Shown in pieces: positions 1,549-50,077 of a stretch of 64,000 nucleotides of DNA; positions within the stretch are counted from its first letter, which is position 1, and each line of letters starts with the position of its first letter. Below the pieces are notes generated by a model that saw only the letters and a program-made list of their open reading frames with translations, was not told the DNA's origin and did not search any database. Position numbers and translations under genes: made by a program. The DNA is from Octopus vulgaris (taxonomy: Eukaryota): assembly GCA_951406725.2 (NCBI GenBank), contig OX597841.1, positions 6,200,001 through 6,264,000 on the forward strand, written 5' to 3'.

Positions 1549-3137
1549 AAGGCCAATGTATATATATATATATATGTATATATTAATAAAGTAGAGAGTC
1601 CAAGTGATTTATCTTTGTTACTCATTATAAATGTTATGCCTTTCAACCAGGTGGTCATGGTGTATTCTCATTTTCATTACCATTTTATCCTAGCATTACT
1701 GGATTACACATAATACTTTCTTTTCAATGTCCGTTGTCAACTTACCTGTAATATTTGCTCTTCCCGGTTCCAATCTGTCCCTTCCAGGTTTTCTTTAATC
1801 AAATTTTACTCTTTCTCTACCTTTCACTACCATTTCACAAAACTTCCTTTGTTCACATTTATATCAATTATACAACTCAGACACTGGCCGGGTACCCATG
1901 TACCCATGTGAAAAAAAAAAAACCTATGTTTTGGTGGATTTCAATACAAACATACCTACGACATTTATGAAATATTAAGAAGTATTTATTGTCGAAAATA
2001 ACAAAATGAAGAATAATGAGTGAATTACTGACAATAAAACATTGAAAATATTAAAATCAGTTCTTTATAATATTTGCAGAGGGATAAAAATAATTTGCTT
2101 TTTCGCTTGTGATTTTGGCATTTTTATTTAAATACTTATACAAACATTAGCATCTTTAATCATGGACGTATTTCAATAATGCCTCTGTCATTATTGATAG
2201 CTGGTAATTACATAAGTCCAGAACGGTGAGCCCACCCAAAGACTTGTAAGTAGATAGGACAGATGGAAACTGAAGGAAGCCCATCGTGTATGTATGTCTG
2301 TTTCACATGGTATGGTACTCGTGTCACCAGTAAACAAAAAGTGGCCTCCATCAAAATATTACCAATCTGGGGCAAATCCTCATCATGCCTCCAGCGTTAG
2401 TGACGGCTTGGTTATGCTTAGTATTTGCATAAGATCAGAAGAGTGAGTCTATCCAAAGACTTGTGAGTAGATAAGACATGGAAACCGAAGGAAGCCCATC
2501 GATTATGTGCGTCTATTTCACTTTTAATAGAATGGTAGTTGTGTCACCGATATGCAAAAAGTATCCTTCATCAAAATACTACCAATCAGGGGCAAATCAT
2601 CATCATTTAGAATCCGTCGTCCATGCTGGCATGGGTTGGGCTGTTTGACCAGGGTTGGAAACCTGGAAGGCAGCACCAGACCCCAGTCTGACTTTGGCAT
2701 GGTTTCTCTGGCCTGATGCCCTTCCCAACACCAACCACTCTGAGAATGTAATGAATTGGGAAGAGTGTCACGTGACCACAGTGATTGACTCAACAAACCC
2801 TATCTGACCCAGTCAAGTGTGAAAATGTGGAAGTTAAAATACTGAAGATCGTCTCTCATGATTCATGAAATTGTGTCTCAGCCAAAGAATTAACAGTGAA
2901 CAGATCATCCTCTTGATGGTATTTGTGGATTAGAAGAAGAGAAGAATGATTTCTAACATGTTTCACCATTTCACGTTGGCATTAGGAAGGGCATCCAGCG
3001 AGAGAAACCAGGGCCAAAACAGACAACTGGTGCAGCTCTCCAGTAAAACCGTCCAACCCATGCCAGCATGGAAAATGTGATGTTAAATATTGATGACTAT
3101 TCCCTGTCATAAAATGTTCTCCAAAGAAAAGGGTTCA

Positions 3138-4440
3138 TCATATCTTACAGTTGAAAGGTTTCCCTCCAGAATGAATCTTTTTCTCATTAATTCACTACAA
3201 GACACAATAAATTTCTTACATCTTTCACAGTGGAATTCTATTTCCTCCTGTGTGACGACATTTGTGGTCAATTAGGCTACCACTCTGAGTAAAAGATTTT
3301 CCACATCTTTCACAGTGGAAGGGTCTTTCTCCAGTGTGGACGATATTTGTGGTGCAATTCAGGGTACTACTCTGAGGAAAAGATTTCCCACATAATTCAC
3401 AGTGGAATCGTTTCTCCCCAGATATTTGTGTCAATTCGTCTATGAACTCCAACTTGAAACTTATGAAGATAATTCTTTCCCATATATTTCCACAATTATT
3501 CTCTTTTATTCCAGAGTGTATTTTCTTATGGCGTGCACAAGAAGATTGATCAGAGAAGGATTTACCACACGTTTCACACTGGAAGGGTTTTTCCCCTGTA
3601 TGGACCCTTTTATGTCTGTCTAAATCACTATTAGAGACAAAACATTTCCCACAGATTTCACAAGGAAAACGTTTTTCCCCAGTGTGTACAATTTTGTGTG
3701 TTCTTAATGTACTCCTAGAACCAAATGATTCTCCACAGATTTCACAGTGGGAACGGTTTTTCCCCAGTGTGTGTTTTTATGTGTGTTATTAAAACTCTAT
3801 TTGTGACAAAAGATTTCTTACACAATTTACACTGGAATGGTTTCTCTCCTGTGTGACTACGTTTGTGAACCACAACATAAACATTCTTATTAAAAGACTT
3901 TCCACATATTTCACAATGGAAAGGCTTTTCCCCTGTGTGTATTGTTAAGACACTGCTAGAAACGAAAGATTTTCCACATATTTCACATCGGAATGGTTTC
4001 TCTCCAGTGTGACAACGTTTGTGAATTACAACAGAGGCAGAATCAGCAAAAGATTTCCCACAGATTTCACATTGGTATGGTTTCTCTCCTGTGTGACGAC
4101 GTTTGTGTCCAATGAGAGTAGAACTCTGAGCAAAAGATTTTCCACAAATTTCACAGTGGAAAGGTTTTTCCCCAGTGTGACTACGTTTGTGAGCTTCGAG
4201 ATCATAATTTCTGTGAAATGATTTCCCACAGATTTCACAACGGAACCGTTTCTTCTTCTTGTGTATTTCTTCATGTGAGAAGACTTCATCTTCTGAAGAG
4301 AATTTCTTCCTACAAATCTCACAGTGATATTCAGCAACACTTTTGTCTTCAGCTTCCTCATCTCTCTCTGTCTCTTCAACTGCATCTCCGTTCTCAAAAA
4401 CAGTCGTCTTACAAGTGTCCAAGAGATTAACGTTCTCCAT
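3138..4440 (-). pseudogene. C2H2 zinc-finger gene copy 1 (ZF1), frameshifted and degenerate in its 3' half
   Basis: ORF 3742-4440 has the family start MENVNLLDT and CxxC..HxxxH/TGEKP repeats. A +1 frameshift near 3750 (CCGTTCCCACTGT versus CCGTTCCACTGT) is followed by further broken fingers down to the family-type ending (SGGKPFNCKI*) at 3138. A finger is also shortened (VLTIHTGEK). Some indels could be sequencing errors. Confidence 0.85.
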
Positions 4441-4502
4441 ATGAATTCTTGGGGAATTCTTAAAAAGTAGACAAATGCTCGGTTTCTTATCGTTGATATC
4501 AA

Positions 4503-4586
4503 AGGCGGCGAGCTGGCAGAAAGGTTAGCACGCCGGGCGAAATGCTTAGTGGTATTTCGTCTGCCGCTACGTTCTGAGTTCAAATT
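4503..4586 (+). mobile_element. tRNA-derived SINE head (family B), truncated
   Basis: GGCGGCGAGCTGGCAGAA...GAGTTCAAAT with A/B-box-like motifs; longer copies at 39558-39792 and 37895-38341. Confidence 0.7.
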
Positions 4587-4910: not shown

Positions 4911-5150
4911 TAATTGTTGTTGACACACTACGGCAGAAATTGTATTCACCTTAATAGACGTCATTGATTGGTTGATATTGCTGAAATGCAAGAGATTAAA
5001 CAACAAATAGCTTACAAACTACAGAATTTTCTCAAAAGAGCCGAGAGAAAAAAATGTTTTAGGTAACACACTTCCGGTATACGAAGTTTTAAAGTATTTA
5101 GTTACAAAAAAATTATTTTAAAAATCTGCCGGTCAAAATGAAAAGATCCA
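4911..5150. mobile_element. One arm of the GATC-terminal foldback MITE
   Basis: Reverse-complement similar to 13051-13290 and to 426-640; ends in AAAAGATCCA. Confidence 0.65.
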
Positions 5151-5387
5151 TTATTTCTATATTTTATGCAAACAAAATGCACAAGAAAGCTACACGTTTG
5201 CATTATGTTATATATACAATAACAATAAAGGATGTTACCGTATACATTTCTACAAACCAAGGACGTTATATGGACCTCCTTGACTCAAGTCAGAGAAGGG
5301 GTGCGTATTATACACAAGGTTTAGGTTTTTCAGAGGTACAGACCCCTAAAAATCCCCTGGGCGGACTATACTCGAGGATTTACGGTA
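5151..5387 (+). mobile_element. Right part of a CCGTA-terminal (Tc2/pogo-like) MITE, hybrid of two variants
   Basis: Ends TATACTCGAGGATTTACGG-TA; 5292-5387 matches the reverse complement of the copy at 31443-31870. Confidence 0.8.
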
Positions 5388-5756
5388 CATTGCTATAATA
5401 TCCGAAGCGTACTCATTTCCAGTTGAAAACTATATTCTAACCAAACGTTTATTTTTGAGTGGGGATTTTTATTTTCGTCACCGCTTATATTCAAACAAGG
5501 GAAAAAGTATCATCGACACCGTCTACCGTGTTTCTAATTTTCTTAATTAAATCTAATTAAATCATTCGTAGTAATTATCTCATGTTGAGGTGAACGTTAC
5601 CGTTTGCGGATAAGACAGGGCTACGAACAAGTCTGGTTTTTAGGGGTTCGTTCGACCCAACTCGACAAAACCAAAGCAAACATTCCACTGTCCCAGATTA
5701 ATTATTTCATTTGATCAAAGCTTTAAATCGTTAATTGGTTTTCCCCTATTTTACAG

Positions 5757-5855
5757 AAAAGGAGGAAATGGCTTTTAATCAACAACAAATCAATCAACGA
5801 ACTTTCTTCAGCCTTCTCCACTCTTCATTTGGACTTTATACCAAACATTCTACTG
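5757..5855 (+). other. Conserved upstream mini-exon of ZF2
   Basis: TATTTTACAG acceptor and CTG|GTGAGT donor; homologous sequence precedes ZF3-ZF9. Confidence 0.65.
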
Positions 5856-5994
5856 GTGAGTAGGAAATACATCTACATTGCATCTGTTCCACACTTGTAA
5901 ACGGAGGACTGTGATATCTAAGACAAGAAATTGAACCATAACAGATTAACGCACGGACGTTTGTCTACTTTTTAAGAATTGCTCAAGAAATAAT

Positions 5995-8900
5995 ATGGAG
6001 ACCGTTGATCACTTGGACACAATTGTTTTGAACGATACAGATACAGATAGAGAGACAGACGGGGATGAGAAAACTGTTAATGGTGAAGTATTTACTAAAG
6101 AAAGATCGAGACAGGGAAATATCACCGAATATAAATGTGATGTTTGTAGGAAGACATTCTCTTCGGAGCAAGAAGTCTTTAAACACAAAGAAATACACAA
6201 TAAGGAAAAAGCCTATAATTGTGAAATATGTGGGAAGAATTTTGTCTCTGAAGATGTCTTAACGAAACACAAACGGATACACACTGGAGCAAGATTGTTC
6301 CATTGTGAGATCTGTGGAAAATCATTCATTAACAATTCTGATCTTGTTCTACACACTCGTAGTCACACTGGGGAGAAACCATTCAAGTGTGAAATTTGTG
6401 CAAAATCATTTGTCTCAAAAAGTAGGCTAAAAATTCACAAAAGAATCCACTCTGGAGGAAAATTATTTCATTGTGAAATTTGTCAGAAATATTTTCTATT
6501 TAACAGTGATTTAAACAGACATAAACGAATCCATAGTGGTGAGAAACCGTTTAGTTGTGAGATCTGCGGGAGATCATTTCTTAACAATTCTCATCTTGCA
6601 ACACACACACGTCGTCACACTGGGGAGAAACCATTCAAGTGTGAGATATGTGCAAAATCATTTATCTGTAAAAGTGAGCTAACATTTCACAAAAGACTCC
6701 ACACTGGAGAAAAATTACTCCATTGTGAAATATGTCCGAAATATTTTCGTTTTAACTGTGATTTAAACAGACATTTAAGAACACATTCAAGTGAAAAACC
6801 ATTCCACTGTGAAACGTGTGGGAAAAGCTTTACTGATAACAGTGGCTTAACGAAACACAAAGGAATCCACACTGGAGCAAGACTGTTTCATTGTGAGATC
6901 TGTGGAAAATCGTTTCAATGCAATTCTCATCTTGCAATACACACTCGTAGTCACACTGGGGAAAAACCATTCAAGTGTGAAATATGTGCGAAATCATTTG
7001 TCTGTAAAAGTGTACTACACAGACATAAAAGGATCCACTCTGATGAGAAACCCTTCAGTTGTGAGATCTGCGGGAAATCATATATTAACAATTCTGATCT
7101 TATTCTACACACTCGTAATCACACTGGGGAGAAACCATTCAAGTGTGAAATCTGTGCAAAATCATTTGTCTGTAAAAGTGAACTAAACAAACATAAAAGG
7201 ATCCACTCTGATGAGAAACCCTTCAGTTGTGAGATCTGTGGAAAATCGTTTCTTTGCAATTCTCATCTTGCAATACACACTCGTAGTCACACTGGGGAGA
7301 AACCATTCAAGTGTGAAATATGTGCAAAATCATTTGTCTGTAAAAGTGAATTAAACAAACATAAAAGGATCCACTCTGATGGGAAACACTTCAGTTGTGA
7401 GATCTGCGGGAAATCATTTCTTAGAAATTCTGAACTTTCAGTACACACACGTCGTCACACTGGGGAGAAACCATTCAAGTGTGAAATATGTGCAAAATCA
7501 TTTGTCTGTAAAAGTGAACTAATCAAACATAAAAAGATCCGCTCTGATGAGAAACCGTTTAGTTGTGAGATCTGCGGGAAATCATATATTAACAATACTG
7601 ATCTTGTCCTACACACACGTCGTCACACTGGGGAAAAACCATTCAAGTGTGAAATATGTGCAAAATCATTTGTCTGTAAAAGTGTACTAACAGCTCACAA
7701 AAGGATCCACTCTGATGAGAAACCCTTCAGTTGTGAGATCTGCGGGAAATCATTTCTTAGAAATTCTGATCTTGTTCGACACACACGTAGTCACACTGGG
7801 GAAAAACCATTCAAGTGTGAAATATGTGCAAAATCATTTGTCCGTAACAGTGTTTTAAACAGCCATAAAAGAATCCACTCTGATGAGAAACCCTTCAGTT
7901 GTGAGATCTGAGGGAAATCATTTCTTAGAAATTCTGATCTTGTTCTACACACATGTCGTCACACTGGGGAGAAACCATTCAAGTGTGAAATATGTGCAAA
8001 ATCATTTGTCTGTAAAAGTGTACTAACAGCTCACAAAAGGATCCACACTGATGAGAAACCCTTCAGTTGTGAGATCTGCGGGAAATCATTTCTTAGAAAT
8101 TCTGATCTTGTTCTACACACTCATAGTCACACTGGGGAAAAACCATTCAAGTGTGAAATATGTCAGAAATCATTTGTTTGTAAAAGTGTACTAACAGCTC
8201 ACAAAAGAATCCACTCTGATGAGAAACCGTTCAGTTGTGAGATTTGCGGGAAATCATTTCTTAACAATTCTGATCTTGTTCTACACACATGTCGTCACAC
8301 TGGGGAGAAACTATTCAAGTGTGAGATATGTTGTAAATCATTTATCTCTCATTATCGACTAAAAATTCACAAAAGACTCCACACTGGAGCAAGACTGTTT
8401 CATTGTGAGATCTGTGGAAAATATTTTCTCTCCAATTATGCTTTAAACAGGCATAAACAAACACATACAGGGGAGAAGCCTCACCATTGTGAGGTGTGTG
8501 GAAAAAGTTTCACTCAAGCCTCTCATCTTGCAGTTCACAAACGGATCCACACAGGAGAAAGACCTTTCCACTGCAGGGTTTGTGGCAAATCTTATAATAC
8601 AAATTTTACTCTTGTTCTTCACTTACGTAGTCACACAGGTGAAAGACCTTTCCATTGTGAAATCTGTGGTAAATCCTTCTCTAATAATTCTTCTCTTGTA
8701 GTTCACAAACGAACTCACACTGGAGATAAACCTTTCCATTGTGGAATATGTGGAAAGTCTTTTGTCAGGAGCAGCCACTTAAACACACACAAATTTATTC
8801 ACTCTAGAGGAAAAAGGTTTCACTGTGATATGTGCGGGAAATGGTTCACTCTTAATTCTACGCTTGTCATTCATAAACGAATTCACACCGGAGAAAAGCC

Positions 8901-9673
8901 TTATTGTTGTGATATATGTGGCTCATTGTTTGTCTCTCGCAGTAACTTAACGAAGCACGAACGAGTCCATACAGGAGACAAACCATTTGGCTGTGAAATA
9001 TGTGGAAAATCTTTTGTTTGTAGCAGTGACTTAACGAGGCATAGAAGGGTCCATACTGGGGAAAAACCTTTCCACTGTGAAATATGTGGAAAATCTTTTT
9101 CTCAGAATCCTCATCTTGTGATTCACAAACGTGGCCACACTGGAGAAAAGCCGTTCCAGTGAAATGTGTGGGACATCATTTGTGTCTAGCACTACCTTAA
9201 CACAACACAAAAGGATACACTCAAAAGAGAAAGCATTTGGCTGTGAAATATGTGGGGAATCTTTTGTTTGTAGCAGTAAATTAACGAGGCATAAAAGACT
9301 GCATTCTGAACAGAAACGCTTCCACTGTGAAATGTGTGGAAAATCTTTTACTCTGAATTCTCGTCTTGTAATTCACAAACGTCATCACACTGGAGAGAAG
9401 CCATTCCACTGTGAATTCTGTGGGACATCGTTTGTGTCTGAGAGTGGCTTAACAAAACACAAAAGGATACATAAAGTTGAAGGACGTTTTTTTTGTGAAG
9501 TCTGTGGGAAATGTTTTGCATATAACAGTAACTTAACAGAACACAAAAGGGTCCATGCAGGGGAACAACGTTTTCCTTGTGCAATCTGTGGGAAATGTTT
9601 TGCATATAACAGTAACTTAACAGAACACAAAAGGATTCACTCTGGAGGGAAACCTTTTAACAGTGGCATATGA
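5995..9673 (+). pseudogene. Chimeric C2H2 zinc-finger gene (ZF2), about 42 finger units, with premature stop and frameshift
   Basis: The 84-nt finger periodicity is continuous from ~6130 to ~9640. TGA at 7909-7911 replaces a Cys codon and the frame stays open after it. A 2-nt deletion near 9158 is seen against the paralog 34473-36893. The upstream acceptor AG is changed to GG (5955-5956). Confidence 0.88.
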
Positions 9674-12530
9674 TAAATCCTTAAAAACTTGCCAGGAATG
9701 GGACCAAAACATAAGAAAACAAGATCGGTTCGAGACGAAATCGTTAGTAAATGAATGAAGGACAAAATAATGAGCAGAATAAAGGTTTAGGGCCCCAGGA
9801 AAACAAGGATTAAATGAAAATAGTCGATAGAGAGCAAGAAAAGCCTTTGGGCTGCTGGACAAGACAAGAATGGGGAATGCGAAAGAGAAATGAAAACTTG
9901 TAAAGGACAATGAACACTGGGTCGGTAGAGCAAGGAGCTCAAAAAATTGTGACCAGTGCGGACGAGGGCAACGCGTAAAAAGAATGACCACTGCCTCAGG
10001 CAATCACCAATCACATTCTCAAGCAGTAATGTAATTAGATAGAGATCGTTATGGCCAGTGTCATAGGCCACCGGCTGTTAGTGTCTGAAGGGGTGGTGTA
10101 GTGCTGTGTATTTTCTGGATGCAGAACCCTGGGTAACCCCATAGAACAGCCATAACTATCTTCATCTAATATATATGTATGTGTGTAAATAGGTTTCTTT
10201 GTGTCTGCATCTGGCAAGTTATCTAACGCCTTTCCTCAGTCTGGTATAATAATATAGATCAGACTGGAGCCTGGTGCAGCCTCCTGGCTTCCCAGACCCT
10301 GGTCGAACTGTCCAACCCATGCTAGCATGGAAAACGGACATTAAATGATGATGATATTTATGTGTGTGTGTATAATTTCAGTAAATCATGAATAGAAAAG
10401 AGAAGTATACTCCAAGTCATAGAGCAATAGAGTAATTAGACAAAGGTAGTTATGGGCAGTGTATGGTTTTACACAGGGATTTGAGTGCATGAAGGGCTTA
10501 GCTTTACAGCATCTCTTCAGAAATTTATGGTTGGTCACCAGGGGCATAAGCTGTTACGATCTGACAACTGCTCTAAAACTAAGCCCAGAGGCCAGCCACA
10601 ACTATCTTTATCTAATATACATGTTTCTTTCTGTTTGCATCTCACAAGTTCTTTTCTCCGTCTGCTATAATAATATAGAACACTTGTCCAAGACATCTCA
10701 TAGTGGGACTGAAACCGATATCAACATGGTATGGTTTAGAAAAGTGTCTAAATTCTGTAATGGTGGTCATGTTGGAATATGAAACCAACAGCTGGAGAGA
10801 GATTCGTCCAAGTGAAACCTTTTCACTTTACCTCGTCTATCAATAATTTTTAATTAAAACCACAGGAAATTCAAAATCATTTTAAATAAAAATTTATTCT
10901 TTATATTCCTTAGACCAGCATAAAACCACAAATTATTCAATGATGAAATCAGAAACAAGCAAAGAACATTCACTGTAAAAAGCAGACTTTCCTTTTCTTT
11001 CTGTTAATAATTCAGATCCAGCAAAAACAGAAATCACTGAGAAATTTAGGCAAAACTTTATCATTGAAATTTGTGAGGAAATATTTTTTGGTCAATTTAA
11101 AATATTTTGTTAAAAATGTCCTGAATTTTGAAATTAAAATCCTTTCATTTTAATAATTTGTTGCATTATATTTTCTGGTCAGTTGATGTGATTCTTTCCA
11201 TTTTGATTCTTGAGTGAAAAACTTTCTTTTATTAAACAACATAAAACCACGTTTGCACTGCCAACTCCCTTATAATCAGGGGCTGTATTGTTCCCCTTCC
11301 AATCGAGGCTGCAGGTTTCTGCTTTCCAATCTTCATTTCTACTCCCTGATCTTTTATTCTTTGTTGCAGTCATTTTCCTGACAGCTATGAGGAAACAATG
11401 TCTGTAGGGGCAGGTGAAGGTGTACATTTGTACAGGTAAGCCTATATCAGTGGGGGAAGTTATTAAAGTACATACTATTAACAATAAAAATTTGCACAAT
11501 GACTTCTGAGTGCAACCTATGGCAACGGTTCACCTGCCCTCAGCATCTCTCTCTCCCTCCAACTCCGTTTCTGGCTTAAGTTTCCGTCTGCCGGCCTGAG
11601 CGATGTGGAACACATTGCATTTTATGAAATGGAAGTCAAGATTTGAATGGACTTACAAATACGAAAGACAAAAAGAACAACGAAGCAGAGATGCTTTTAT
11701 AGAAAGCGAGTGGAATATCTGTTGGATGTCTTGCAAACTACTTGCACATGCAAGAGCTACCAGTTAAAAGCTCCGTATACCGGAAGCTAGCAAGTGTATG
11801 GGGTCATCAGGAGAGAATGCGCGCCGTTTTGGGGCCTACCTCTCGACGGCCCCCCCTCACCGATATGAGGCCCCGCTTGCTAGATCAGCTGGTTATGAAG
11901 TTAAACTCAACATCCTTCTAGCCATCGCTCATCGTCTCTTTTTAACCAAATCCAGTGGCTAGCCTTCTCCATTTCGGGGCCTACTTCTCGACGGCATCAA
12001 TGCGCACTGCCCCCCACCTCACTGATATGAGGCCCCGCTTGCTAGATCAGCTGGTTATGAAGTTAAGCTCAATATCCTTCTAGCCATCACTCATCGTCTC
12101 TTTTTAACCAAATCCAGTGGCTAGCCTTCTCCACCGTAGATTAGAAAAGCATTTATGAGAGACAAACGCGAAAAATAAAGAAAACGATTCAAGCTCGTGT
12201 GGAATGATTTGAACGTATAAAACTTGTAAACAGAAACAAATTGGACAGCTTCAAAAGCTAGAATCACTTACAGAAAAAGAAGTTTATATATATGTAAATA
12301 TATAAACAAAGTTACGTAGCATATTGTAGAAGGGGTGAAGAAATGTTACTGGCTTTAGGAAAAGAAAGTACAAGTGGATCAGTTATTTAGGATTTTATTC
12401 AACGTCCCCTTCTCACATTCATTCAGTGTAGCCGATCTTCAGTTTTTCTAGGTCATCTAAAAGAACTCGGAAGGTGGGGCCTGAAACCAGGCCTTCCGCC
12501 ACCCACTTAAAGTCGGGAGCTGCCCTCATA

Positions 12531-13050
12531 TACCGTAAATCCTCGAGTATAATCCGCATTTTTCCCCCAAAATTTAAAGGTCAGAATCCCTAGTGCGTAC
12601 TATATACGAGGTTCAAAAATGACAATTATTTTCTAAGCAATGACCAAGTCTCTATTTGCTGTCCGGCAATGTTTATTCAGACGCATTTTGTGATGTCGGG
12701 CGCTAAAATACCTTCAGCTAAGCCTGAAAGCAATGAAGTCATAAAAGAATCATCCATAACTTGCAATAAGCAACATTTATTAAACGTTATTACTGTTATT
12801 TCTTTATTTTATGTTATATATACAATAATAATAAAGGATGTTATATAGATCTCCTTGACTCAAGTTAGAGAAGGGGTGCGTATTATACACCAGGTTTAGG
12901 TTTTTCAGAGGTACAGCCCCCTAAAAATCCTCTGCGTATTATACCCAAGGGCGCGAAAATACCTTAAGCTAAGCCTGAAAGCAATGAAGTCATAAAAGAA
13001 TCATCCATAACTTGCAATAAGCAACATTTATTGAACGTTATTATTGTTAT
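12531..13050 (+). mobile_element. Left part of the same Tc2/pogo-like MITE plus an internal partial repeat
   Basis: Starts TA-CCGTAAATCCTCGAGTATA; right TIR missing; 12953-13050 repeats ~12700-12800. Confidence 0.8.
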
Positions 13051-13290
13051 TGGATCTTTTTGCTGAACGGCAGACTTTTAAAATAATTTCTTTGTAATTA
13101 AACACTTTTAAACTTCGTATACTGGTATAAATGTGTTTATATAACTTCTTTTACACTTGGCTTTCTTGAGAAAATTCTGTAGTTTGTAAGCTATTTGTTG
13201 TTTAATTTCTTGCATTTCAGCAATTTCAACCAATCAATGACGTCTATTGAGGTGAATACAATATCTCCGGATCTTTGTCAACAACAATTA
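13051..13290. mobile_element. Opposite arm of the GATC-terminal foldback MITE
   Basis: Starts TGGATCTTTT; inverted relative to 4911-5150. Confidence 0.65.
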
Positions 13291-13504
13291 CTTGCTGTGT
13301 CTTCTTCTATGTTTAGCAGTTGGAAGAAGGCAGTCTGGGTCAAATGCTTCTTTTGGCTGTCTCCACATGTATACTAGGCCAGTGGGGTCGATCTAATTTA
13401 CTGGCTCCCTCCCACCAAATTTCAGGCCTTGTGCCTAGAGTAGAATAGAATATTCATAACTTCTGATGATTTGCTGTGCATTGCAATATTTAAAAGAGAT
13501 TTAA

Positions 13505-28835: not shown

Positions 28836-30833
28836 TCATATTCCACAGTTAAGAGATTTCCTTCCTCTGTGAATCCTTTTGTGTTGTGTTAAGTTACTGC
28901 TAGTGGCAAAAGATTTTCCACAGATTTCACAGCGGAAAGGTTTTTCCCCTGTATGGATTCTTCTATGCTTCGTTAAGCTACTGCTATAATTAAAAGATTT
29001 CCCACATATCTGACAGCCAAATGGTTTCTCCCCTATATGTCTTCTTTGGTGTTTCGTTAAGATACTGTTAGACACAAACGATGTCCCGCAGATTTCACAG
29101 TGGAAAAGTTTTTCTCTTGTGTGGACACGTTTGTGAATTACAAGATGATAACTCTGAAAAAAAGATTTTCCACATACTTCGCAGAGGAAAGGCTTTTCTC
29201 CAGTATGGCCACGTTTGTGACATATGAGATGGGAATTCTGAGAAAAAGATTTTCCGCATATTTCACAGTGGAAAGGTTTCTCCCCAGTATGCAGTCGTTC
29301 ATGCCTCGTTAAGTCACTGCCACAAACGAAAGTTTTCCCACAGATTTGACAGCGAAATGGTTTCACTCCTGAATGGATTCGTTTGTGTTTTGTTAAGTTG
29401 CCATTGTAGGCAAACAATGTGCCGCATATTTCACAACGATATGGTTTTTCCCCAGTGTGACTCTGCTGATGTCTGACAAGAGTAGAATTTTGAGTGAAAC
29501 ACTTCCCGCAGATTTCACAGCGAAGCAGTTTTCGTCCAGAGTCATTCAATTTGCACGTATTTAAGAGGCTGTTACCAACGAAGGGTTCCCCAAATATTTC
29601 ATGGAAAGGCTTCTCTTCAGCGTGACTTCGTTTGTGAACAACAAGAAGAGAATTATCGGAGAAAGATTTCTCACACACTTCACAACGGTAGGGATTTTCT
29701 CCAGTGTCACTACGTTGGTGTTCAACGAGGCATGGTTTATCAGCAAATGATTTTCCGCCTATTTCAAAGCGATAAATATTTTCTCCAGTGTGACTAAGTT
29801 TGTGACGAACCAAATTAAAATTAACAGAGAATGATTTACCACAGATATCACAATGATGTGGTTTCTCCCCGGTATGTGTTCGCCTATGTTTCTTTAAAGC
29901 ACTATTACAGAAAAAATAATTTCCACATATCTCACAATCATAGGATTTTTCCCCCGTGTGGATCCGTTTGTGTTTCGTTAAGCCACTGTTATCAGTAAAG
30001 CTTTTCCCACACGTTTCACAGTGGAATGGTTTTTCACTTGAATGTGTTCTTAAATGTCTGTTTAAATCACAGTTAAAACGAAAATATTTCGGACATATTT
30101 CACAATGGAGTAATTTTTCTCCAGTGTGGAGTCTTTTGTGAAATGTTAGCTCACTTTTACAGATAAATGATTTTGCACATATTTCACACTTGAATGGTTT
30201 CTCCCCAGTGTGACGACGTGTGTGTAGAACAAGATCAGAATTGTTAAGAAATGATCTCCCGCAGATCTCACAACTAAACGGTTTCTCACCACTATGGATT
30301 CGTTTATGTCTGTTTAAATCACTGTTAGATAGAAAATATTTCTGACAAATTTCACAATGAAATAATTTTCCTCCAGAGTGGATTCTTTTGTGAATTTTTA
30401 GTACACTTTTACAGACAAATGATTTCGCACAAATTTCACACTTGAATGGTTTTTCCCCAGTGTGACTACGAGTGTGTATTGCAAGATGAGAATTGCATTG
30501 AAACGATTTTCCACAGATCTCACAATGAAACAGTCTTGCTCCAGTGTGTATCCGTTTGTGTTTTGTTAAGACATCTTCAGAGACAAAATATTTCCCACAT
30601 ATTTCACAATTATAGGATTTTTCCTTATTGTGTATTTCTTTGTGTTTAAAGACTTCTTGCTCCGAAGAGAATGTCTTCCTACAAACATCACATTTATATT
30701 CGGTGATATTTCCCTGTCTCGATCTTTCTTTAGTAAATACTTCACCATTAACAGTTTTCTCATCCCCGTCTGTCTCTCTATCTGTATCTGTATCGTTCAA
30801 AACAATTGTGTCCAAGTGATCAACGTTCTCCAT
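28836..30833 (-). CDS. C2H2 zinc-finger protein (ZF4), 665 aa, about 22 finger units (2 degenerate)
   Basis: Intact ORF; two internal units have lost Cys/His ligands (YRFEIGGKSF, FHEIFGEPF). Confidence 0.93.
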   Translation of the reverse strand: MENVDHLDTIVLNDTDTDRETDGDEKTVNGEVFTKERSRQGNITEYKCDVCRKTFSSEQEVFKHKEIHNKEKSYNCEICGKYFVSEDVLTKHKRIHTGARLFHCEICGKSFQCNSHLAIHTRSHTGEKPFKCEICAKSFVCKSVLKIHKRIHSGGKLFHCEICQKYFLSNSDLNRHKRIHSGEKPFSCEICGRSFLNNSDLVLHTRRHTGEKPFKCEICAKSFICKSELTFHKRLHTGEKLLHCEICPKYFRFNCDLNRHLRTHSSEKPFHCETCGKSFTDNSGLTKHKRIHTGEKSYDCEICGNYFFCNSALKKHRRTHTGEKPHHCDICGKSFSVNFNLVRHKLSHTGENIYRFEIGGKSFADKPCLVEHQRSDTGENPYRCEVCEKSFSDNSLLVVHKRSHAEEKPFHEIFGEPFVGNSLLNTCKLNDSGRKLLRCEICGKCFTQNSTLVRHQQSHTGEKPYRCEICGTLFAYNGNLTKHKRIHSGVKPFRCQICGKTFVCGSDLTRHERLHTGEKPFHCEICGKSFSQNSHLICHKRGHTGEKPFLCEVCGKSFFQSYHLVIHKRVHTREKLFHCEICGTSFVSNSILTKHQRRHIGEKPFGCQICGKSFNYSSSLTKHRRIHTGEKPFRCEICGKSFATSSNLTQHKRIHRGRKSLNCGI

Positions 30834-30972
30834 ATTATTTCTTGAGCAATTCTTAAAAAGCTGACAAACGTCTGTGAGTTAATTTATTGTGGTTCAATTT
30901 CTTGTCTCAGATATCACAGTCCTCCGTTTACAAGTGTGGAACAGATGCAACGTAGATGTATTTCCTACTCAC

Positions 30973-31071
30973 CAGTAGAATGTTTGGTATAAAGTCCAAA
31001 TGAAGAGTGGAGAAGGCTGAACAAAGTTCGTTGATTGATTTGTTGTTGATTAAAAGCCATTTCCTCCTTTT
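30973..31071 (-). other. Upstream mini-exon of ZF4 (ATG at 31060, in frame after splicing)
   Basis: AG/GT boundaries; intron 30872-30972; 88+38 nt is a multiple of 3. Confidence 0.65.
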
Positions 31072-31442
31072 CTGTAAAATAGAGGAAAACCAATTAACGA
31101 TTTAAAGCTTTGATCAAATGAAATAATTAATCTGGGACAGTGGAATGTTTGCTTTGGTTTTATCGAGTTGGGTCGAACGAACCCCTAAAAACCAGACTTG
31201 TTCGTAGCCCTGTCTTATCCGCAAACGGTAACGTTCACCTCAACATGAGATAATGACTACGAATGATTTAATTAGATTTAATTAAGAAAATTAGAAACAC
31301 GGTAGACGGTGTCGATGATACTTTTTCCCTTGTTTGAATATAAGCGGTGACGAAAATAAAAATCCCCACTCAAAAATAAACGTTTGGTTAGAATATAGTT
31401 TTCAACTGGAAATGAGTACGCTTCGGATATTATAGCAATGTA

Positions 31443-31870
31443 CCGTAAATCCTCGAGTATAGTCCGCCCAGGGGATTTTTAGGGGTCTGTACCTCTGAAA
31501 AACCTAAACCTTGTGTATAATACGCACCCCTTCTCTAACTTGAGTCAAGGAGATCTATATAACATATTTTATTATTATTGTATATATAACATAAAATAAA
31601 GAAATAACAGTAATAATGTTTAATAAATGTTGCTTACTGCAAGTTATGGATGATTCTTTTATGACTTCATTGCTTTCAGGCTTAGCTGAAGGTATTTTAG
31701 CGCCCGACATCACAAAATGCGTCTGAATAAACATTGCCGGACAGCAAATAGAGACTTGGACATTGCTTAGAAAATAATTGTCATTTTTGAACCTCGTATA
31801 TAGTACGCACTAGGGATTTTGACCTTTAAATTTTGGGGGAAAAAAGCAGATTATACTCGAGGATTTACGG
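31443..31870. mobile_element. Complete Tc2/pogo-like MITE
   Basis: 19-bp perfect TIR CCGTAAATCCTCGAGTATA with TA on both flanks. Confidence 0.85.
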
Positions 31871-34472
31871 TATATGAGGGCAGCTCCCGACTTTAAGTGG
31901 GTGGCGGAAGGCCTGGTTTCAGGCCCCACCTTCCGAGTTCTTTTAGATGACCTAGAAAAACTGAAGATCGGCTGCACTGAATGAATGTGAGAAGGGGACA
32001 TTGAATAAAATCCTAAATAACTGATCCACTTGTACTTTCTTTTCCTAAAGCCAGTAACATTTCTTCACCCCTTCTACAATACGCTACGTAACTTTGTTTA
32101 TATATTTACATATATATAAACTTCTTTTTCTGTAAGTGATTCTAGCTTTTGAAGCTGTCCAATTTGTTTCTGTTTACAAGTTTTATACGTTCAAATCATT
32201 CCACACGAGCTGGAATCGTTTTCTTTATTTTTCGCGTTTGTCTCTCATAAATGCTTTTCTAATCTACAGTGGAGAAGGCTAGCCACTGGATTTGGTTAAA
32301 AAGAGACGATGAGCGATGGCTAGAAGGATATTGAGCTTAACTTCATAACCAGCTGATCTAGCAAGCGGGGCCTCATATCAGTGAGGGGGGCCGTCGAGAG
32401 GTAGGCCCCGAAATGGCTCGCATTCTCTCCTGATGACCCCATACACTTGCTAGCTTCCGGTATACGGAGCTTTTAACTGGTAGCTCTTGCCTGTGCAAGT
32501 AGTTTGCAAGACATCCAACAGATATTCCACAGCATCTCTGCTTCGTTGTTCTTTTTGTCTTTCGTATTTGAAAGTTCATTCTAATCTTGACTTCCATTTC
32601 ATAAAATGCAATGTGTTCCCCATCGCTCAGGCCGGCAGAGGGAAACTTTAGCCAGAAACGGAGTTGGAGGGAGTGAGAGTGAGAGATGCCCAGGGCAGGT
32701 GAACCGTTGCCATAGGTTGCACTCAGAAGCCGTTGTGCAAATTTTTATTGTTGATAGTATTTACTTTAATAACTTCCCCCACTGATATAGGCTTACCTGT
32801 ACAAATGTACACCTTCACCTGCCCCTACAGACATTGTTTCCTCATACCTGTCAGGAAAATGACTGCAACAAAGAATAAAAGATCAGGGAGTAGAAATGAA
32901 GATTGGAAAGCAGAAACCTGCAGCCTCGATTGGAAGGGGAACAATACAGCCCCTGATTATAAGGGAGTTGGCAGTGCAAACGTGGTTTTATGTTGTTTAA
33001 TAAAAGAAAGTTTTTCACTCAAGAATAAAAATGGAAAGAATTACATCAACTGACCAGAAAATATAATGCAACAAATTATTAAAATGAAAGGATTTTAATT
33101 TCCAAATTCAGAACATTTTTAACAAAATATTTTAAATTGACCAAAAAATATTTCCTCACAAATTTCAATGATAAAGTTTTGCCTAAATTTCTCAGTGATT
33201 TCTGTTTTTGCTGGATCTGAATTATTAACAGAAAGAAAAGGAAAGTCTGCTTTTTACATTGAATGTTCTTTGCTTGTTTCTGATTTCATCATTGAATAAT
33301 TTGTGGTTTTATGCTGGTCTAAGGAATATAAAGAATAAATTTTTATTTAAAATGATTTTGAATTTCCTGTGGTTTTAATTAAAAATTTGTGATAGACGAG
33401 GTAAAGTGAAAAGGTTTCACTTGGACGAATCTCTCTCCAGCTGTTGGTTTCATATTCCAACATGACCACCATTACAGAATTTAGACACTTTTCTAAACCA
33501 TACCGTGTTGATATCGGTTTCAGTCCGACTATGAGATGTCTTGGACAAGTGTTCTATATTATTATAGCAGACGGAGAAAAGAACTTGTGAGATGCAAACA
33601 GAAAGAAACATGTATATTAAATAAAGATAGTTGTGGCTGGCCTCGCTGTAAAGCTAAGCCCTTCATGCACTCAAATCCCTGTGTAAAACCATACACTGCC
33701 CATAACTACCTTTGTCTAATTACTCTATGACTTGGAGTATACTTCTCTTTTCTATTCATGATTTACTGAAATTATACACACACACATAAATATCATCATC
33801 ATTTAATGTCCGTTTTCCATGCTAGCATGGGTTGGACAGTTCGACCAGGGTCTGGGAAGCCAGGAGGCTGCACCAGGCTCCAGTCTGATCTATATTATTA
33901 TACCAGACTGAGGAAAGGCGTTAGATAACTTGCCAGATGCAGACACAAAGAAACCTATTTACACACATACATATATATTAGATGAAGATAGTTATGGCTG
34001 TTCTATGGGGTTACCCAGGGTTCTGCATCCAGAAAATACACAGCACTACACCACCCCTTCAGACACTAACAGCCGGTGGCCTATCACACTGGCCATAACG
34101 ATCTCTATCTAATTACATTACTGCTTGAGAATGTGATTGGTGATTGCCTGAGGCAGTGGTCATTCTTTTTACGCGTTGCCCTCGTCCGCACTGGTCACAA
34201 TTTTTGAGCTCCTTGCTCTACCGACCCAGTGTTCATTGTCCTTTACAAGTTTTCATTTCTCTTTCGCATTCCCCATTCTTGTCTTGTCCAGCAGCCCAAA
34301 GGCTTTTCTTGCTCTCTATCGACTATTTTCATTTAATCGTTGTTTTCCTGGGGCCCTAAACCTTTATTCTGCTCATTATTTTGTCCTTCATTCGTTTACT
34401 AACGTTTTCGTCTCAAACCGATCTCGTTTTCTTATGTTTTGGTCCCATTCCTGGCAAGTTTTTAAGGATTTA

Positions 34473-36893
34473 TCATATTCCACTGTTAAAAGGTTTCCCT
34501 CCAGAGTGAATCCTTTTGTGTTCTGTTAAGTTACTGTTATATGCAAAACATTTCCCACAGATTTCACAAGGAAAACGTTGTTCCCCTGCATGGACCCTTT
34601 TGTGTTCTGTTAAGTTACTGTTAGATGCAAAACATTTCCCACAGATTTCACAAAAAAAACGTCCTTCAACTTTATGTATCCTTTTGTGTTTTGTTAAGCC
34701 ACTCCTAGACACAAACGATGTCCCACAGAATTCACAATGGAACGGCTTCTCTCCAGTGTGATGACGTTTGTGAATTACAAGACGAGAATTCAGAGTAAAA
34801 GATTTTCCACACATTTCACAGTGGAAGCGTTTCTGTTCAGAATGCAGTCTTTTATGCCTCGTTAATTTACTGCTACAAACAAAAGATTCCCCACATATTT
34901 CACAGCCAAATGCTTTCTCTTTTGAGTGTATCCTTTTGTGTTGTGTTAAGGTAGTGCTAGACACAAATGATGTCCCACACATTTCACAGTGGAACGGCTT
35001 TTCTCCAGTGTGGCCACGTTTGTGAATTACAAGATGAGGATTCTGAGAAAAAGATTTTCCACATATTTCACAGTGGAAAGGTTTTTCCCCAGTATGGACC
35101 CTTCTATGCCTCGTTAAGTCACTGCTACAAACAAAAGATTTTCCACATATTTCACAGCCAAATGGTTTGTCTCCTGTATGGACTCGTTCGTGCTTCGTTA
35201 AGTTACTGCGAGAGACAAACAATGAGCCACATATATCACAACAATAAGGCTTTTCTCCGGTGTGAATTCGTTTATGAATGACAAGCGTAGAATTAAGAGT
35301 GAACCATTTCCCGCACATATCACAGTGAAACCTTTTTCCTCTAGAGTGAATAAATTTGTGTGTGTTTAAGTGGCTGCTCCTGACAAAAGACTTTCCACAT
35401 ATTCCACAATGGAAAGGTTTATCTCCAGTGTGAGTTCGTTTGTGAACTACAAGAGAAGAATTATTAGAGAAGGATTTACCACAGATTTCACAATGGAAAG
35501 GTCTTTCACCTGTGTGACTACGTAAGTGAAGAACAAGAGTAAAATTTGTATTATAAGATTTGCCACAAACCCTGCAGTGGAAAGGTCTTTCTCCTGTGTG
35601 GATCCGTTTGTGAACTGCAAGATGAGAGGTTTGAGTGAAACTTTTTCCACACACCTCACAATGGTGAGGCTTCTCCCCTGTATGTGTTTGTTTATGCCTG
35701 TTTAAAGCATAATTGGAGAGAAAATATTTTCCACAGATCTCACAATGAAACAGTCTTGCTCCAGTGTGGAGTCTTTTGTGAATTTTTAGTCGACATTTTG
35801 AGATAAATGATTTTGCACATATCTCACAGTTGTATGGTTTCTCCCCAGTGTGACGACGTGTGTGTAGAACAAGATCAGAATTGTTAAGAAATGATTTGAA
35901 GCATATCTCACAACTGAAGGGTTTCTCATCAGAGTGGATTCTTTTGTGAATACTAAGTACACTTTTAGATACAAATGATTTCTGACATATTTCACACTTG
36001 AATGGTTTCTCCCCAGTGTGACTACGTGTGTGTAGAACAAGATCAGAATTGGTAATACAAGATTTCCCGCATATCTCACAACTGAAGGGTTTCTCATCAG
36101 AGTGGATTCTTTTGTGAATTCTAAGTACACTTTTAGATACAAATGATTTCTGACATATTTCACACTTGAATGGTTTCTCCCCAGTGTGACTACGTGTGTG
36201 TAGAACAAGATCAGAATTGTTAATATATGATTTCCCGCAGATCTCACAACTGAAGGGTTTCTCATCAGAGTGGATCCTTTTATGTCTGTTTAAAACACTG
36301 TTACAGGCAAATGATTTTGCACATATTTCACACTTGAATGGTTTCTCCCCAGTGTGACGACGTGTGTGTACTGAAAGTTCAGAATTTCTAAGAAATGATT
36401 TCCCGCAGATCTCACAACTGAAGGGTTTCTCATCAGAGTGGATTCTTTTATGGCTGTTTAAAACACTGTTATGGACAAATGATTTCGCACATATTTCACA
36501 CTTGAATGGTTTCTCCCCAGTGTGACTACGAGTGTGTATTGCAAGATGAGAATTGCATTGAAACGATTTTCCACAGATCTCACAATGAAACAGTCTTGCT
36601 CCAGTGTGTATCCGTTTGTGTTTTGTTAAGACATCTTTAGAGACAAAATTCTTCCCACATATTTCACAATTATAGGCTTTTTCCTTATTGTGTGTTTCTT
36701 TGTGTTTAAAGACTTCTTGCTCCGAAGGGAATGTCTTCCTACAAACATCACATTTATATTCGGTGATATTTCCCTGTCTCGATCTTTCTTTAGTAAATAC
36801 TTCACCATTAACAGTTTTCTCATCCCCGTCTGTCTCTCTATCTGTATCTGTATCGTTCAAAACAATTGTGTCCAAGTGATCAACGTTCTCCAT
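34473..36893 (-). CDS. C2H2 zinc-finger protein (ZF5), 806 aa, about 27 fingers
   Basis: Intact ORF with tandem C2H2 fingers and an internal two-finger (168-nt) repeat. Confidence 0.94.
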   Translation of the reverse strand: MENVDHLDTIVLNDTDTDRETDGDEKTVNGEVFTKERSRQGNITEYKCDVCRKTFPSEQEVFKHKETHNKEKAYNCEICGKNFVSKDVLTKHKRIHTGARLFHCEICGKSFQCNSHLAIHTRSHTGEKPFKCEICAKSFVHNSVLNSHKRIHSDEKPFSCEICGKSFLRNSELSVHTRRHTGEKPFKCEICAKSFACNSVLNRHKRIHSDEKPFSCEICGKSYINNSDLVLHTRSHTGEKPFKCEICQKSFVSKSVLRIHKRIHSDEKPFSCEICGKSCITNSDLVLHTRSHTGEKPFKCEICQKSFVSKSVLSIHKRIHSDEKPFSCEICFKSFLNNSDLVLHTRRHTGEKPYNCEICAKSFISKCRLKIHKRLHTGARLFHCEICGKYFLSNYALNRHKQTHTGEKPHHCEVCGKSFTQTSHLAVHKRIHTGERPFHCRVCGKSYNTNFTLVLHLRSHTGERPFHCEICGKSFSNNSSLVVHKRTHTGDKPFHCGICGKSFVRSSHLNTHKFIHSRGKRFHCDMCGKWFTLNSTLVIHKRIHTGEKPYCCDICGSLFVSRSNLTKHERVHTGDKPFGCEICGKSFVCSSDLTRHRRVHTGEKPFHCEICGKSFSQNPHLVIHKRGHTGEKPFHCEMCGTSFVSSTTLTQHKRIHSKEKAFGCEICGESFVCSSKLTRHKRLHSEQKRFHCEMCGKSFTLNSRLVIHKRHHTGEKPFHCEFCGTSFVSRSGLTKHKRIHKVEGRFFCEICGKCFASNSNLTEHKRVHAGEQRFPCEICGKCFAYNSNLTEHKRIHSGGKPFNSGI

Positions 36894-37807
36894 ATTATTT
36901 CTTGAGCAATTCTTAAAAAGCTGACAAACGTCTGTGAGTCAATCTCCAATGGTTCAATTTCTTGTCTTAGATATCACAGTCCTCCGTTTACAAGCGTGGA
37001 ACAGATGCAACGTAGATGTATTTCCTACTCACCAGTAGAAAGTCCAAATTAAAAGCCATTTCCTCCTTTCCTGTAAAATAGGGAAAAACCAATTAACGAT
37101 TTAAAGCTTTGATCAAATGAAATAATTAACACCGATCATCACACTTGCTCGTCGCCCTGCCTTATCCACAAACAGTAACGTTCACCTTAACATAAGATAA
37201 TTACTACATACGATTATAATTAGATTTACCTGAAATAATTAGAAACACAAACACAGTAGACGGTGTCGATGATCATTTTTCCCGTTTGTATAACGGCGGT
37301 GACAAACATGAAAATCCCCACTCAAAAATAAACATTTGGTTAGAATATAGTTTTCAACAGTCTATAACTGCGCATCGGATACAGTATTAATGTATACGAA
37401 GGGTGCCCCTGGCTTTAAGGGTGTTGCGAAAGGCTTGGCTGCAGGCCCAACCTTCCGGGTTGTTTAACAGGGCTTCGAAAAACTGAAGGATGAATGTGAG
37501 AAGGGGATCATGTTGAATAAAATCCTAAATGACTGATCCACCTGTATTCTCTTTTCTTAGAGTCAGGAACTTTTCATCATCTACCCTACATTACGCTGTG
37601 TATCTTTTGAAGTTGTCTAATTCTTTTTTCAGTTTATAATTTTCAGAGGAAGGTAAAATTACCCACCCCCGGTGGTTAGGGTTACGCCAAAAACGGGTGG
37701 CGTGCGTATTGTTTTTTTCACCTCCGCCTATGTTTCATACTTTCAAAACATTCAAAACCGGCTGGAATCGCTTGTTTATTTTTCGCCTTTGTTTCATAAA
37801 TAGTTTT

Positions 37808-45047: not shown

Positions 45048-46074
45048 ATTATTTCTTGAGCAATTCTTAAAAAGCTGACAAACGTCTGTGAGTTAATTTA
45101 TTGTGGTTTAATTTCTTGTCTTAGATATCACAGTCCTCCGTTTACAAGCGTGGAACAGATGCAACGTAGATGTATATCCTACTTACTGGTAGAAAGTCCA
45201 AATTAAAAGCCATTTCCTCCTTTCCTGTAAAATAGGGAAAAACCAATTAACGATGTAAAGCTTTGATCAAATGAAATAATTAACACCGATCATCACACTT
45301 GCTCGTCGCCCTGCCTTATCCACAAACGGTAACGTTCACCTTAACATAAGATAATTACTACGTATGATTTAATTAATTTTACCTGAAATAATTAGAAACA
45401 CAAACACGGTAGACGGTGTCGATGATAATTTTTCCCACGTTAGAATGACACCGGTGACAAACATGAAAATCCCCACTCAAAAATAAAAATTAGGTTAAAA
45501 TATAGTGTTCAACTATTAATAAATGCGTCTTGGATATAGTATTAATGTATACGAGGGGTTCTCCTAGCTTTAAGGGTGTTGTGAAAGGCCTGTTCCCAGG
45601 CCAAGCCTTCCGAGTTCTTGTAGAGGGCTTCGAAAAACTGAAGGATGGTCGCAGTGAATGAATGTGAGAAGGGGACATGTTGAATAAAATCCTAAATAAC
45701 CGATCCACTTCTAATTTCTTTTCCCAAAGCCAGAAACTTTTCATCGCCCGCTCAACATTACGCTACGTATCTTTGTGCGTGTGTGTGTGTGTGTGTGTGA
45801 GTAACACTCTAGCTTTTAACATTGTTTGATTTTTTTCCAGTTTACAAGTTTTAGTCGAAGATAAAGAACACGCTCACGTGGTGGTCAGAGTTCGGTTTAG
45901 AGTTTAAGATTAGGATTTCGCCGAAAACGGGTGTGTGCGTATTTTTTTTTTACCTTTTAAATCATTCAATGCGAACTGGAATCGCGTGTTTATTTTTTGC
46001 ATTTGTCTCATAAATGACGCAGCACGGAATTTTGTCAGTGAACAGGTCGCGGTCTCAAAGCGACAAAAATACGC

Positions 46075-48636: not shown

Positions 48637-48672
<36 letters not shown>

Positions 48673-49010
48673 GGCTAAGAGACAGACAGAGTGAGGCGGA
48701 GGGAGAGAGAGGGGGTAGTGGTCAAGAATACGAGGGAGAAAAAATATTCTTTTGGGATCTGTGTAGCATAATTTAACGAGGCAGCAAAATGTTGGTAATA
48801 GTAAAATAGAATTGAGAAATCTGAGAGTTTTCGGTCAGACAATCTAAGACAACGTAAAGTATAATAGCCATTTCAATATGGCTAACCACTAAGGGTGGGT
48901 GTTACTGTAGCTTTTAGCCCCAGGAGAACATCGTCTCCAGCTGGCTTTAGGCACACTATCTTATGGTATTTGCAAAGGGAGGTCATCCCTCTCTCGTAAG
49001 CCTAAGTGAT
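46075..49010 (-). mobile_element. Degenerate RTE LINE: 5' UTR, AP endonuclease and reverse transcriptase, 3'-truncated
   Basis: APE motifs (CIQEVRW, YAPQ, VAGDFNGH) in 47579-48181; RT motifs (FVDMEKAFD, YADD); many frameshifts; same family as 52298-55424. Confidence 0.9.
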
Positions 49011-49344
49011 ACGCACGGACTGCAGTTTCTAGGTATTTGCCTGTCTTCGGTGTACGGTAATCACCGGTTTTCGATGAAGTATTCTGTCACATACTCTGAC
49101 TACCTGTTTGCAAATACTTATTTATTGTTTTTCCAGTAACTTCTGTCACTGATTTCGAAAAACTGTCTGCAAGCATTAATAAATCTCTGAACGAGATGTA
49201 AACAGTAACCGCTCGACAACGTAAAGTATACTAGCCATCTCAATATGGCTAACCACTAAGGGTGGGTGTTACTGTAGCTTTTAGCCCCAGGAGATCATCA
49301 TCTCCAAAATTAGGGAAATAAGTGACAGTCTGTGATAAACTTTA

Positions 49345-50044: not shown

Positions 50045-50047
<3 letters not shown>
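49888..50047 (+). mobile_element. Family A SINE head, with the matching tail at 55960-56170
   Basis: The head ends in the usual (TA)n spacer; no tail appears until 55960. Confidence 0.75.

Positions 50048-50077
<30 letters not shown>

Follow-up and report, generated by a model that had tools for sequence, protein, structure and literature searches.

A permuted, inverted copy joins two zinc-finger genes in an octopus C2H2 cluster and ends in reciprocal hybrids of two MITEs

How does a zinc-finger gene come to combine the first fingers of one gene with the last fingers of its neighbor, in the opposite orientation and 17 kb away? The question is raised by a 64,000-nucleotide stretch of Octopus vulgaris DNA (C28:6200001-6264000 of a 2.8-Gb genome in 227 contigs), here called the window. 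It is part of a C2H2 cluster; over the 1.064 Mb examined, 96 arrays have four or more fingers. The gene names ZF2 (plus strand) and ZF4, ZF5 and ZF6 (all minus strand) are those of a preliminary description of the window, which had proposed that ZF2 was made from ZF4 and ZF5 through an excised DNA circle of about 6.7 kb. According to that proposal, the circle was opened inside a miniature inverted-repeat transposable element (MITE) when it re-entered the chromosome. Positions below are those of the window unless a contig is named. We found that the 6,648 bp at 29956-36603 have been copied to 5292-12890, inverted and circularly permuted, and that the copy differs from its source by about 1.5%. 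The features are collected in Table 1.

Table 1. Features of the copy, its source and its target site, in window positions
Feature	Position	Strand	Remark
R right arm, long-TIR DNA-transposon family	4912..5149	+	240 of 269 bp; terminus faces insertion
Target-MITE (M2) part of left hybrid	5150..5291	+	retains 39-bp and 31-bp segments absent from source; private alleles common to L087/L088
24-bp crossover interval, left copy	5292..5315	+	identical to 12867-12890 and source 31513-31536
Source-type 3′ end of MITE	5316..5387	+	15-bp source deletion, TIR, TA
Copy of ZF4 proximal upstream region	5388..5994	+	predicted short 5′ intron; 9 mismatches/562 bp vs 30878-31439
Chimeric C2H2 gene ZF2	5995..9673	+	~42 finger units
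In-frame fusion switch	6868..6872	+	ZF4 finger 9 to finger-2-type linker
Copy of ZF5-ZF4 spacer	9674..12532	+	ends in ZF4 distal upstream block (12306-12533); 40 mismatches/2,592 aligned bp
Source-type 5′ part of MITE	12533..12866	+	both source deletions
24-bp crossover interval, right copy	12867..12890	+	
Target-MITE part of right hybrid	12891..13051	+	then GGGCG joint into next internal tandem unit (12949-13051)
R left arm	13052..13301	+	~250 bp; terminus faces insertion
Source gene ZF4	28836..30878	-	open frame 680 aa; circle boundary 29956
Source MITE	31443..31870	-	intact; both TIRs, TA each side, three private deletions
Source gene ZF5	34473..36938	-	open frame 821 aa, 27 fingers; circle boundary 36603
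ZF6	43320-45092	-	paralogue in window

The order claimed for the copy, ZF4-like fingers followed by ZF5 fingers, spacer and MITE, was borne out by self-BLAST, the dot-plot check that had been proposed for it. Two offset anti-diagonals were observed. The first pairs 5265-7008 with 31563-29821 (94.5%), and the second pairs 7456-10510, 10588-11971 and 11969-12950 with 36692-33645, 33644-32270 and 32416-31451 (95-96%). The two source ends are joined inside the copy, while the two ends of the copy adjoin in the source, so that a block order AB has become BA. The copy is not in tandem with its source: it stands 17 kb away and inverted, with ZF3 and repeats in between. One period of the copy, that is, the copy minus one 24-mer, measures 7,575 bp vs the source span of 6,648 bp. 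The 927-bp excess is made up of eight extra fingers (672 bp) and the net of the listed indels (255 bp). With the reshuffled fingers excluded, divergence from the source was 1.6% in the upstream region, 1.5% in the spacer (counts in Table 1), 1.3% in the ZF5 3′ part (17/1354) and 2.0% in the MITE 5′ part (6/299). The evenness of divergence over the parts fits a single event.

Genome-wide copy counts were made for the upstream and spacer pieces. Among the best 40 candidates scored, no near-identical copy beyond these two was present. An unpermuted parental hybrid elsewhere, which had been named as an observation that would speak against the proposal, was thus not met among these candidates. The upstream region of ZF6 runs uninterrupted across the MITE site (45064-45549, then 45547-45776). 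Because the source MITE is intact and the ZF6 upstream region is continuous across this site, the source order is taken as ancestral, on the evidence of a paralogue. The distal upstream block of ZF4 also precedes ZF5 and ZF6.

Both ends of the copy lie in MITE sequence. The source MITE is a short non-coding element with terminal inverted repeats (TIRs), TA on both sides and many copies, presumably of the Tc1/mariner type; 4,574 candidate matches to its family were counted in the genome, and eight copies were aligned. Compared with these eight, the source MITE has private deletions of 39, 31 and 15 bp, and source-only differences in the alignment are one 2-base stretch and one single base. The right MITE of the copy carries the 39- and 31-bp deletions and lacks the 15-bp deletion, and the left MITE shows the reverse. 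The other markers all agree. Left of 5292 (the two deletions; 5264, 5272, 5275 and 5291) the source alleles stand in the right hybrid and not in the left; right of 5315 (5316, 5342 and 5356; the 15-bp deletion) they stand in the left hybrid and not in the right. Between these markers lies a 24-mer that occurs twice in the copy, at both ends, and once in the source MITE. Its exact outer edges are 5292 and 12890, the limits that had been given for the copy. One target MITE is cut at its 24-bp identity with the source MITE, with zero bases lost or gained. Chimeric transposable elements (TEs) that are reciprocal at both junctions are what TE-mediated non-allelic crossover leaves behind, and both exchange products can be read here because donor and target MITE differ. 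Insertion through MITE homology was therefore upheld by reciprocal hybrids with one common 24-bp switch. The opening inside the MITE also stood; the flanking pieces, however, were found to come partly from a second MITE copy, not from the source alone.

The non-source halves belong to one MITE subfamily with a ~325-bp internal tandem repeat, which was found at seven other sites among 40 candidates scored. Words holding the target-type markers of both hybrids were searched in whole 3-kb loci: 7/8 were present at L087, 6/8 at L088 and none at the source. The subfamily (L087-L093) has two or three units, and all seven matches lie on C27 and C28. The internal joint of the target was at one point regarded as unique, with an exact match only here; a similarity search gave seven more, and this idea was dropped. 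The 24-bp interval overlaps one of four TIR-like motifs of the MITE (3 mismatches/18). That a transposase acted at this motif is speculation.

Such a structure might come from an assembly artefact or a falsely duplicated haplotype, and the preliminary description had named an assembly chimera as one way in which it could be wrong. A divergence of 1.5% could be allelic in a marine invertebrate, and the whole copy is spanned by no read or contig. Contigs of five coded public runs (X1, X2, X5, X6 and X7) were therefore compared with the window, and two junctions, the left flank and the fusion, were checked. Depth served as relative evidence, not as a copy number; contigs over the 564-bp repeat, or over stretches common to other paralogues, were left out. 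Depth outside vs inside the source interval was 15.5-20.4 vs 29.5-44.5 in X1, 36.1-52.4 vs 81.6-94.9 in X2, 33-42.9 vs 57.2-70.6 in X6 and 6.7 vs 16.1-19.7 in X7. For X5 it was 57.1-84.3 vs 87.7-141.3; one contig inside the interval came close to single depth. The individual sequenced in X5 may be the source of the window, as its single-copy contigs match the window exactly. X1, X2 and X6 represent three studies under two organism labels, and they differ from the window in the single-copy parts by 6/1739, 6/1732 and 8/1570 letters, respectively, which is less than the 1.5% between the copies. The left flank runs without mismatch into the adjoining transposon arm R (see below) in contigs of X1, X2 and X7, and in contigs of X1 and X2 the ZF4-type fingers 7-9 continue to 6895. 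A misjoin would not make reciprocal hybrids with a separate MITE subfamily, and the window contains no N letter. The approximately double depth inside the source interval in runs of several studies makes an artefact unlikely, and with the other points we regard it as hardly credible. Single alleles at double depth were also considered as a sign of homogenization; this was rejected since contigs collapse variants.

The finger fusion was placed by the preliminary description in a linker at about 6872, in frame, and could be narrowed to 6868-6872, between a ZF4 finger 9 allele at 6867 and a finger-2 allele at 6873. It sits in a 26-bp block in which ZF4 finger 9 and ZF5 finger 2 differ at two sites. 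Fingers 5-9 of ZF2 match ZF4 fingers 5-9 best (89-100%). The claim that ZF5 fingers 3 to the end follow was correct from ZF2 finger 28 on, which matches ZF5 fingers 13-27 at 96-100%. It did not hold for fingers 10-26, a reshuffled 17-finger mosaic that is eight fingers longer than ZF5 fingers 3-11, and on the other side of the fusion fingers 2-4 look closer to ZF6. Finger 10 is identical to ZF4 finger 3 and one base off ZF5 finger 3. At 6220-6470, ZF2 fingers 2-3 are 98.8% like ZF6, and finger 3 of ZF4, ZF5 and ZF7 has another type in common. This patchwork in the 5′ fingers of ZF2 and ZF4-ZF7 suggests ongoing gene conversion. Judged from such sequence comparisons, the fusion partner would most simply be ZF5 finger 2, with later finger shuffling blurring its identity.

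We were also interested in whether ZF2 could still serve as a gene. The intact frame expected of a functional chimeric gene was not found. The frame read from the ATG at 5995 covers 638 codons (21 fingers) before a TGA at 7909-7911 in finger 22. A 2-bp deletion at 9158, shared by contigs of X1 and X5, shifts the frame of the tail. The splice acceptor that the paralogues use in frame has changed from AG to GG at 5955. The distal conserved upstream block now stands behind ZF2. Fingers 28-36 have two changed codons, too few to judge selection. ZF2 is likely a decaying duplicate or one truncated to 21 fingers. Protein searches for octopus orthologues (lengths 350-1117 aa) gave at least 120 generic C2H2 matches in one case, those listed being at 56% identity or less, and one weak match in another.

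For the origin of the copy, we put the chances at about even that the stretch between ZF4 and ZF5 closed into a 6.6-kb DNA circle, which re-entered 17 kb away by one MITE crossover. In a first step, ZF4 finger 9 and ZF5 finger 2 would have recombined in their near-identical 26-bp linker, in the 84-bp finger register; the junction is observed, and the circle could have arisen by direct excision from a sister or homologue, or by pop-out from an unequal-crossover tandem. In a second step, the MITE of the circle would have recombined, within the 24 bp, with an oppositely oriented and already rearranged MITE of the other subfamily, which would give the hybrids observed. Finally, the finger array would have been reshuffled, with eight added fingers and ZF6-like patches, and the chimera would have gained its stop and frameshift; the differences are seen, and their order is a presumption. 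Landing on the same chromosome was counted in favor of the circle, as the available part of a human germline study reports putative extrachromosomal circular DNA insertions to be intrachromosomal in 80/82 cases (10.64898/2026.09.03.749254).

The same junctions bear on a route with no free circle, in which the target MITE broke and its repair used the nearby source MITE as a template, through synthesis-dependent annealing or template switching. Copying would have run from ZF4 fingers 1-9 to ZF5 finger 2, by a switch or along a pre-existing tandem duplicate, and through the MITE to the other broken end. From such copying one expects the order observed, an undamaged source, a single split in the target and an inverted copy close by, and short homologies as observed are enough for it. 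Breakpoint features, according to the portion of a human study consulted, cannot tell end-joining from template switching (PMC7450558). On the other hand, a 6.6-kb tract and a backward switch are demanded, and the two nearest target markers, 24 bp apart, were both kept. Re-annealing would usually convert some target markers. We consider this copying unlikely, though not negligibly so.

Another route dispenses with a circle through unequal crossover between ZF4 and ZF5, which would give a tandem chimera. One source MITE and the target MITE would then mediate an inversion, and the 6-kb inverted repeat so created another. Worked out on paper, it yields an identical product, reciprocal hybrids included. 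A likely tandem finger chimera (a 51-finger array in a tandem array of ~6.7-kb units) and four other inverted pairs are present in the same cluster. Three successive events would be required, however, each having to spread; no tandem or one-inversion intermediate was found in the genome among the best candidates scored, and depth in the runs was about twofold, not threefold. This series of events appears distinctly unlikely.

The target site itself has an odd structure. With the insert removed, it reads flank, R right arm, one permuted period of the tandem MITE, R left arm, flank. The R family has 269-bp TIRs and, in six pairs of termini of other copies, 8-bp target duplications; the overlap at the R/MITE joints here is 5-6 bp, not the 8-bp duplication of R. 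The right flank begins inside another repeat; in 11 copies of this repeat, the part upstream is unlike the left flank, which is itself nearly unique. A 6-mer common to both flanks was treated as chance. The R arms were also tried as ends of a gene-carrying (Pack-type) TIR element; this was rejected, as the termini face inward beside the cargo and the 8-bp duplication is absent. Many copies of the family (L012-L030) are single arms or centre-deleted hairpins, and at C16:56503791-56537690 ten R-arm matches recur every ~3.75 kb in a tandem array. The target structure could stem from outward deletions from R or from a second circle.

A second circle would make the events serial or nested. The zinc-finger circle would have joined the target MITE at another place, or the MITE would itself have been on a second circle; the 8.4-kb block 4912-13301 would have arrived by opening inside the hairpin element R. 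It agrees with a target that is one permuted period of the tandem-type MITE, bracketed by a right and then a left R arm facing inward (cut at 240 and ~250 bp), and with the lack of outer MITE parts within 100 kb on each side. The 5-6 bp overlap in place of the 8-bp duplication of the family speaks against it. R arms ending 240-256 bp from the terminus are moreover common (10/19 copies, chosen by likeness to the right arm here), and landing 17 kb from the source would require chance or proximity. We hold serial circles to be very unlikely. A broader idea, which we offer as quite doubtful, is that octopus C2H2 clusters shed circles at finger repeats and that MITEs are their landing pads. Two nested circles would be recorded here, with the finger-fusion circle entering the MITE at the TIR-like motif, where transposase perhaps kept the two in register, and with a hairpin transposon as the point of opening for the MITE-R unit. 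If true, finger shuffling could be guided by repeats and keep the frame, and new chimeras could leave the tandem array.

Several results count against the single circle with one MITE crossover. Break-repair copying, or tandem duplication with two inversions, ends in an identical product. Two independent switches would fall in one marker interval by chance at about 0.15, so the reciprocity does not by itself settle the matter. The cluster has many local inverted duplications (four more), and routes by inversion or template switch gain in prior probability from them. The allele with the reciprocal deletion, in which ZF4 finger 10 would follow directly on ZF5 fingers 1-2, was absent among the 15 listed of 80 joints. 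The homologies are short: the MITE contributes about 140 bp, with interruptions, and the finger block 26 bp. By a rule of 31 letters, none of the contigs counts as bridging a junction; they attain 25-30 letters at the left flank and 23 at the fusion. The outer parts of the target MITE were not found within 100 kb on either side, and bringing together the flanks outside the R arms does not restore an empty site. As to the circle of the preliminary description, its permutation, closure and entry through a MITE stood, with a span of 6,648 bp; the free circle itself is not established because two other routes give the same end product.

We were further interested in whether the cluster holds other permuted units, as the preliminary description had suggested a general route of gene birth. 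Alignments of at least 400 bp, at least 93% identity and at least 300 low-copy bases were screened, and 87 of 563 raw alignments were kept. Among these, the screen for permutation listed 18 pairs: 3/18 are junctions of the ZF2 copy itself, 2/18 join a piece of the copy to a neighboring repeat or duplication, and the rest are, by their coordinates, tandem arrays or repeat matches. A second clean dispersed permuted unit was thus not found in the 1.064 Mb screened; tandem arrays and four other inverted duplications were found instead. Gene birth is not established either, because the chimera is broken and there is no second clean case.

Other rearrangements were noted in the cluster. ZF1 (3225-4524) is frameshifted, and one of its fingers is shorter than in its inverted copy. 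This 2.7-kb copy of ZF1 fingers and downstream DNA (C28:6193280-6195935, L060, vs window 1582-4239; 97.5%) stands behind a separate 12-finger array after a short repeat; it is not permuted and has a stop codon. The 51-finger array lies at C28:5467206-5471995 and is likely an unequal-crossover finger chimera. Between zinc-finger genes, C28:5511306-5513908 and 5520996-5527809 hold two pieces in swapped order (96-97%), which may represent what is left of a tandem junction or else a permuted unit of greater age. Local inverted duplications of ~12 kb (C28:6299964-6333053, 93-98%) and 4.2 kb (C28:5968846-6009161, 95.8%) and a near-perfect palindrome with 3.4-kb arms (C28:6381784-6388721, 99.3%) were also seen. 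In the window, 50072-51406 has 397-bp inverted arms (99.5%) flanking a 222-aa open frame (50356-51024, minus strand), which we take to resemble a GIY-YIG-type endonuclease tail; this is perhaps a young element. A long interspersed nuclear element lies in pieces at 47579-55382 (minus strand), with endonuclease and reverse-transcriptase frames labeled from their translations, and 46070-47453 matches 53889-55364 at 84%.

The expansion of octopus C2H2 genes is described as tandem duplication in the part of the report available (PMC9795677). The ZF2 locus represents a second product type beside it, a dispersed inverted chimera with both junctions in repeats, read at base resolution. A search image is gained, namely a permuted unit with reciprocal hybrid MITEs, and with three junctions accessible to PCR or long reads, the circle can be tested for in germline DNA. 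The locus carries limited weight, as this is a single case, the mechanism is not unique and the new gene is broken.

Permuted duplication as such is known from several systems. In the human circular-DNA-mediated segmental duplications of Chicote et al., 2020 (22-3918 kb), source ends are joined inside the copy, there is one opening point, the position is non-tandem and two copies exist; the junctions, in the text seen, show 1-2 bp of microhomology or small indels, and no homology according to the authors (PMC7450558). The ZF2 copy differs in its 6.6 kb, in a closure that fuses two reading frames, and in having both junctions in homologous repeats, namely the 26-bp finger block and the 24-bp identity in homologous MITEs. 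The serial translocation of cattle KIT, as summarized in a review seen in part, also has a circle opened away from its closing point, with re-entry in the second step presumably by homologous recombination; it spans ~500 kb, is interchromosomal and re-enters via the ancestral locus of the circle itself (PMC3420103). Here, a dispersed copy of a MITE would have served for re-entry, and the exchange can be read from both of its products. The Nile tilapia vasa duplication is likewise a permuted gene-bearing copy explained by a circle in the animal germline, but it is ~28 kb long and at a distant site, with an 8-bp inverted repeat at its ends, and the whole gene was moved, with no fusion described in the sections available (PMC3245284). 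Human germline AB-to-BA insertions are nearer in size (source up to 5 kb); their block order is cyclic, most are on the same chromosome, and terminal microhomology is enriched. They enter in a microhomology-type manner, and the portion consulted describes no reciprocal crossover between TE copies and no finger fusion (10.64898/2026.09.03.749254). AB-to-BA duplication is also known in yeast. Mouse KRAB zinc-finger clusters share the setting and have chimeric TEs at the edges of duplicated blocks through TE-mediated non-allelic recombination; a permuted unit is not described there, as far as the text seen goes (PMC11952569). For cephalopods or zinc-finger clusters, no circle-type or permuted duplication was found in titles and abstract openings, with subscription literature thinly covered. 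The AB-to-BA kind is therefore already known, and what is new at the ZF2 locus is that both junctions lie in homologous sequence, that the reciprocal products can be read and that the fingers are fused in frame.

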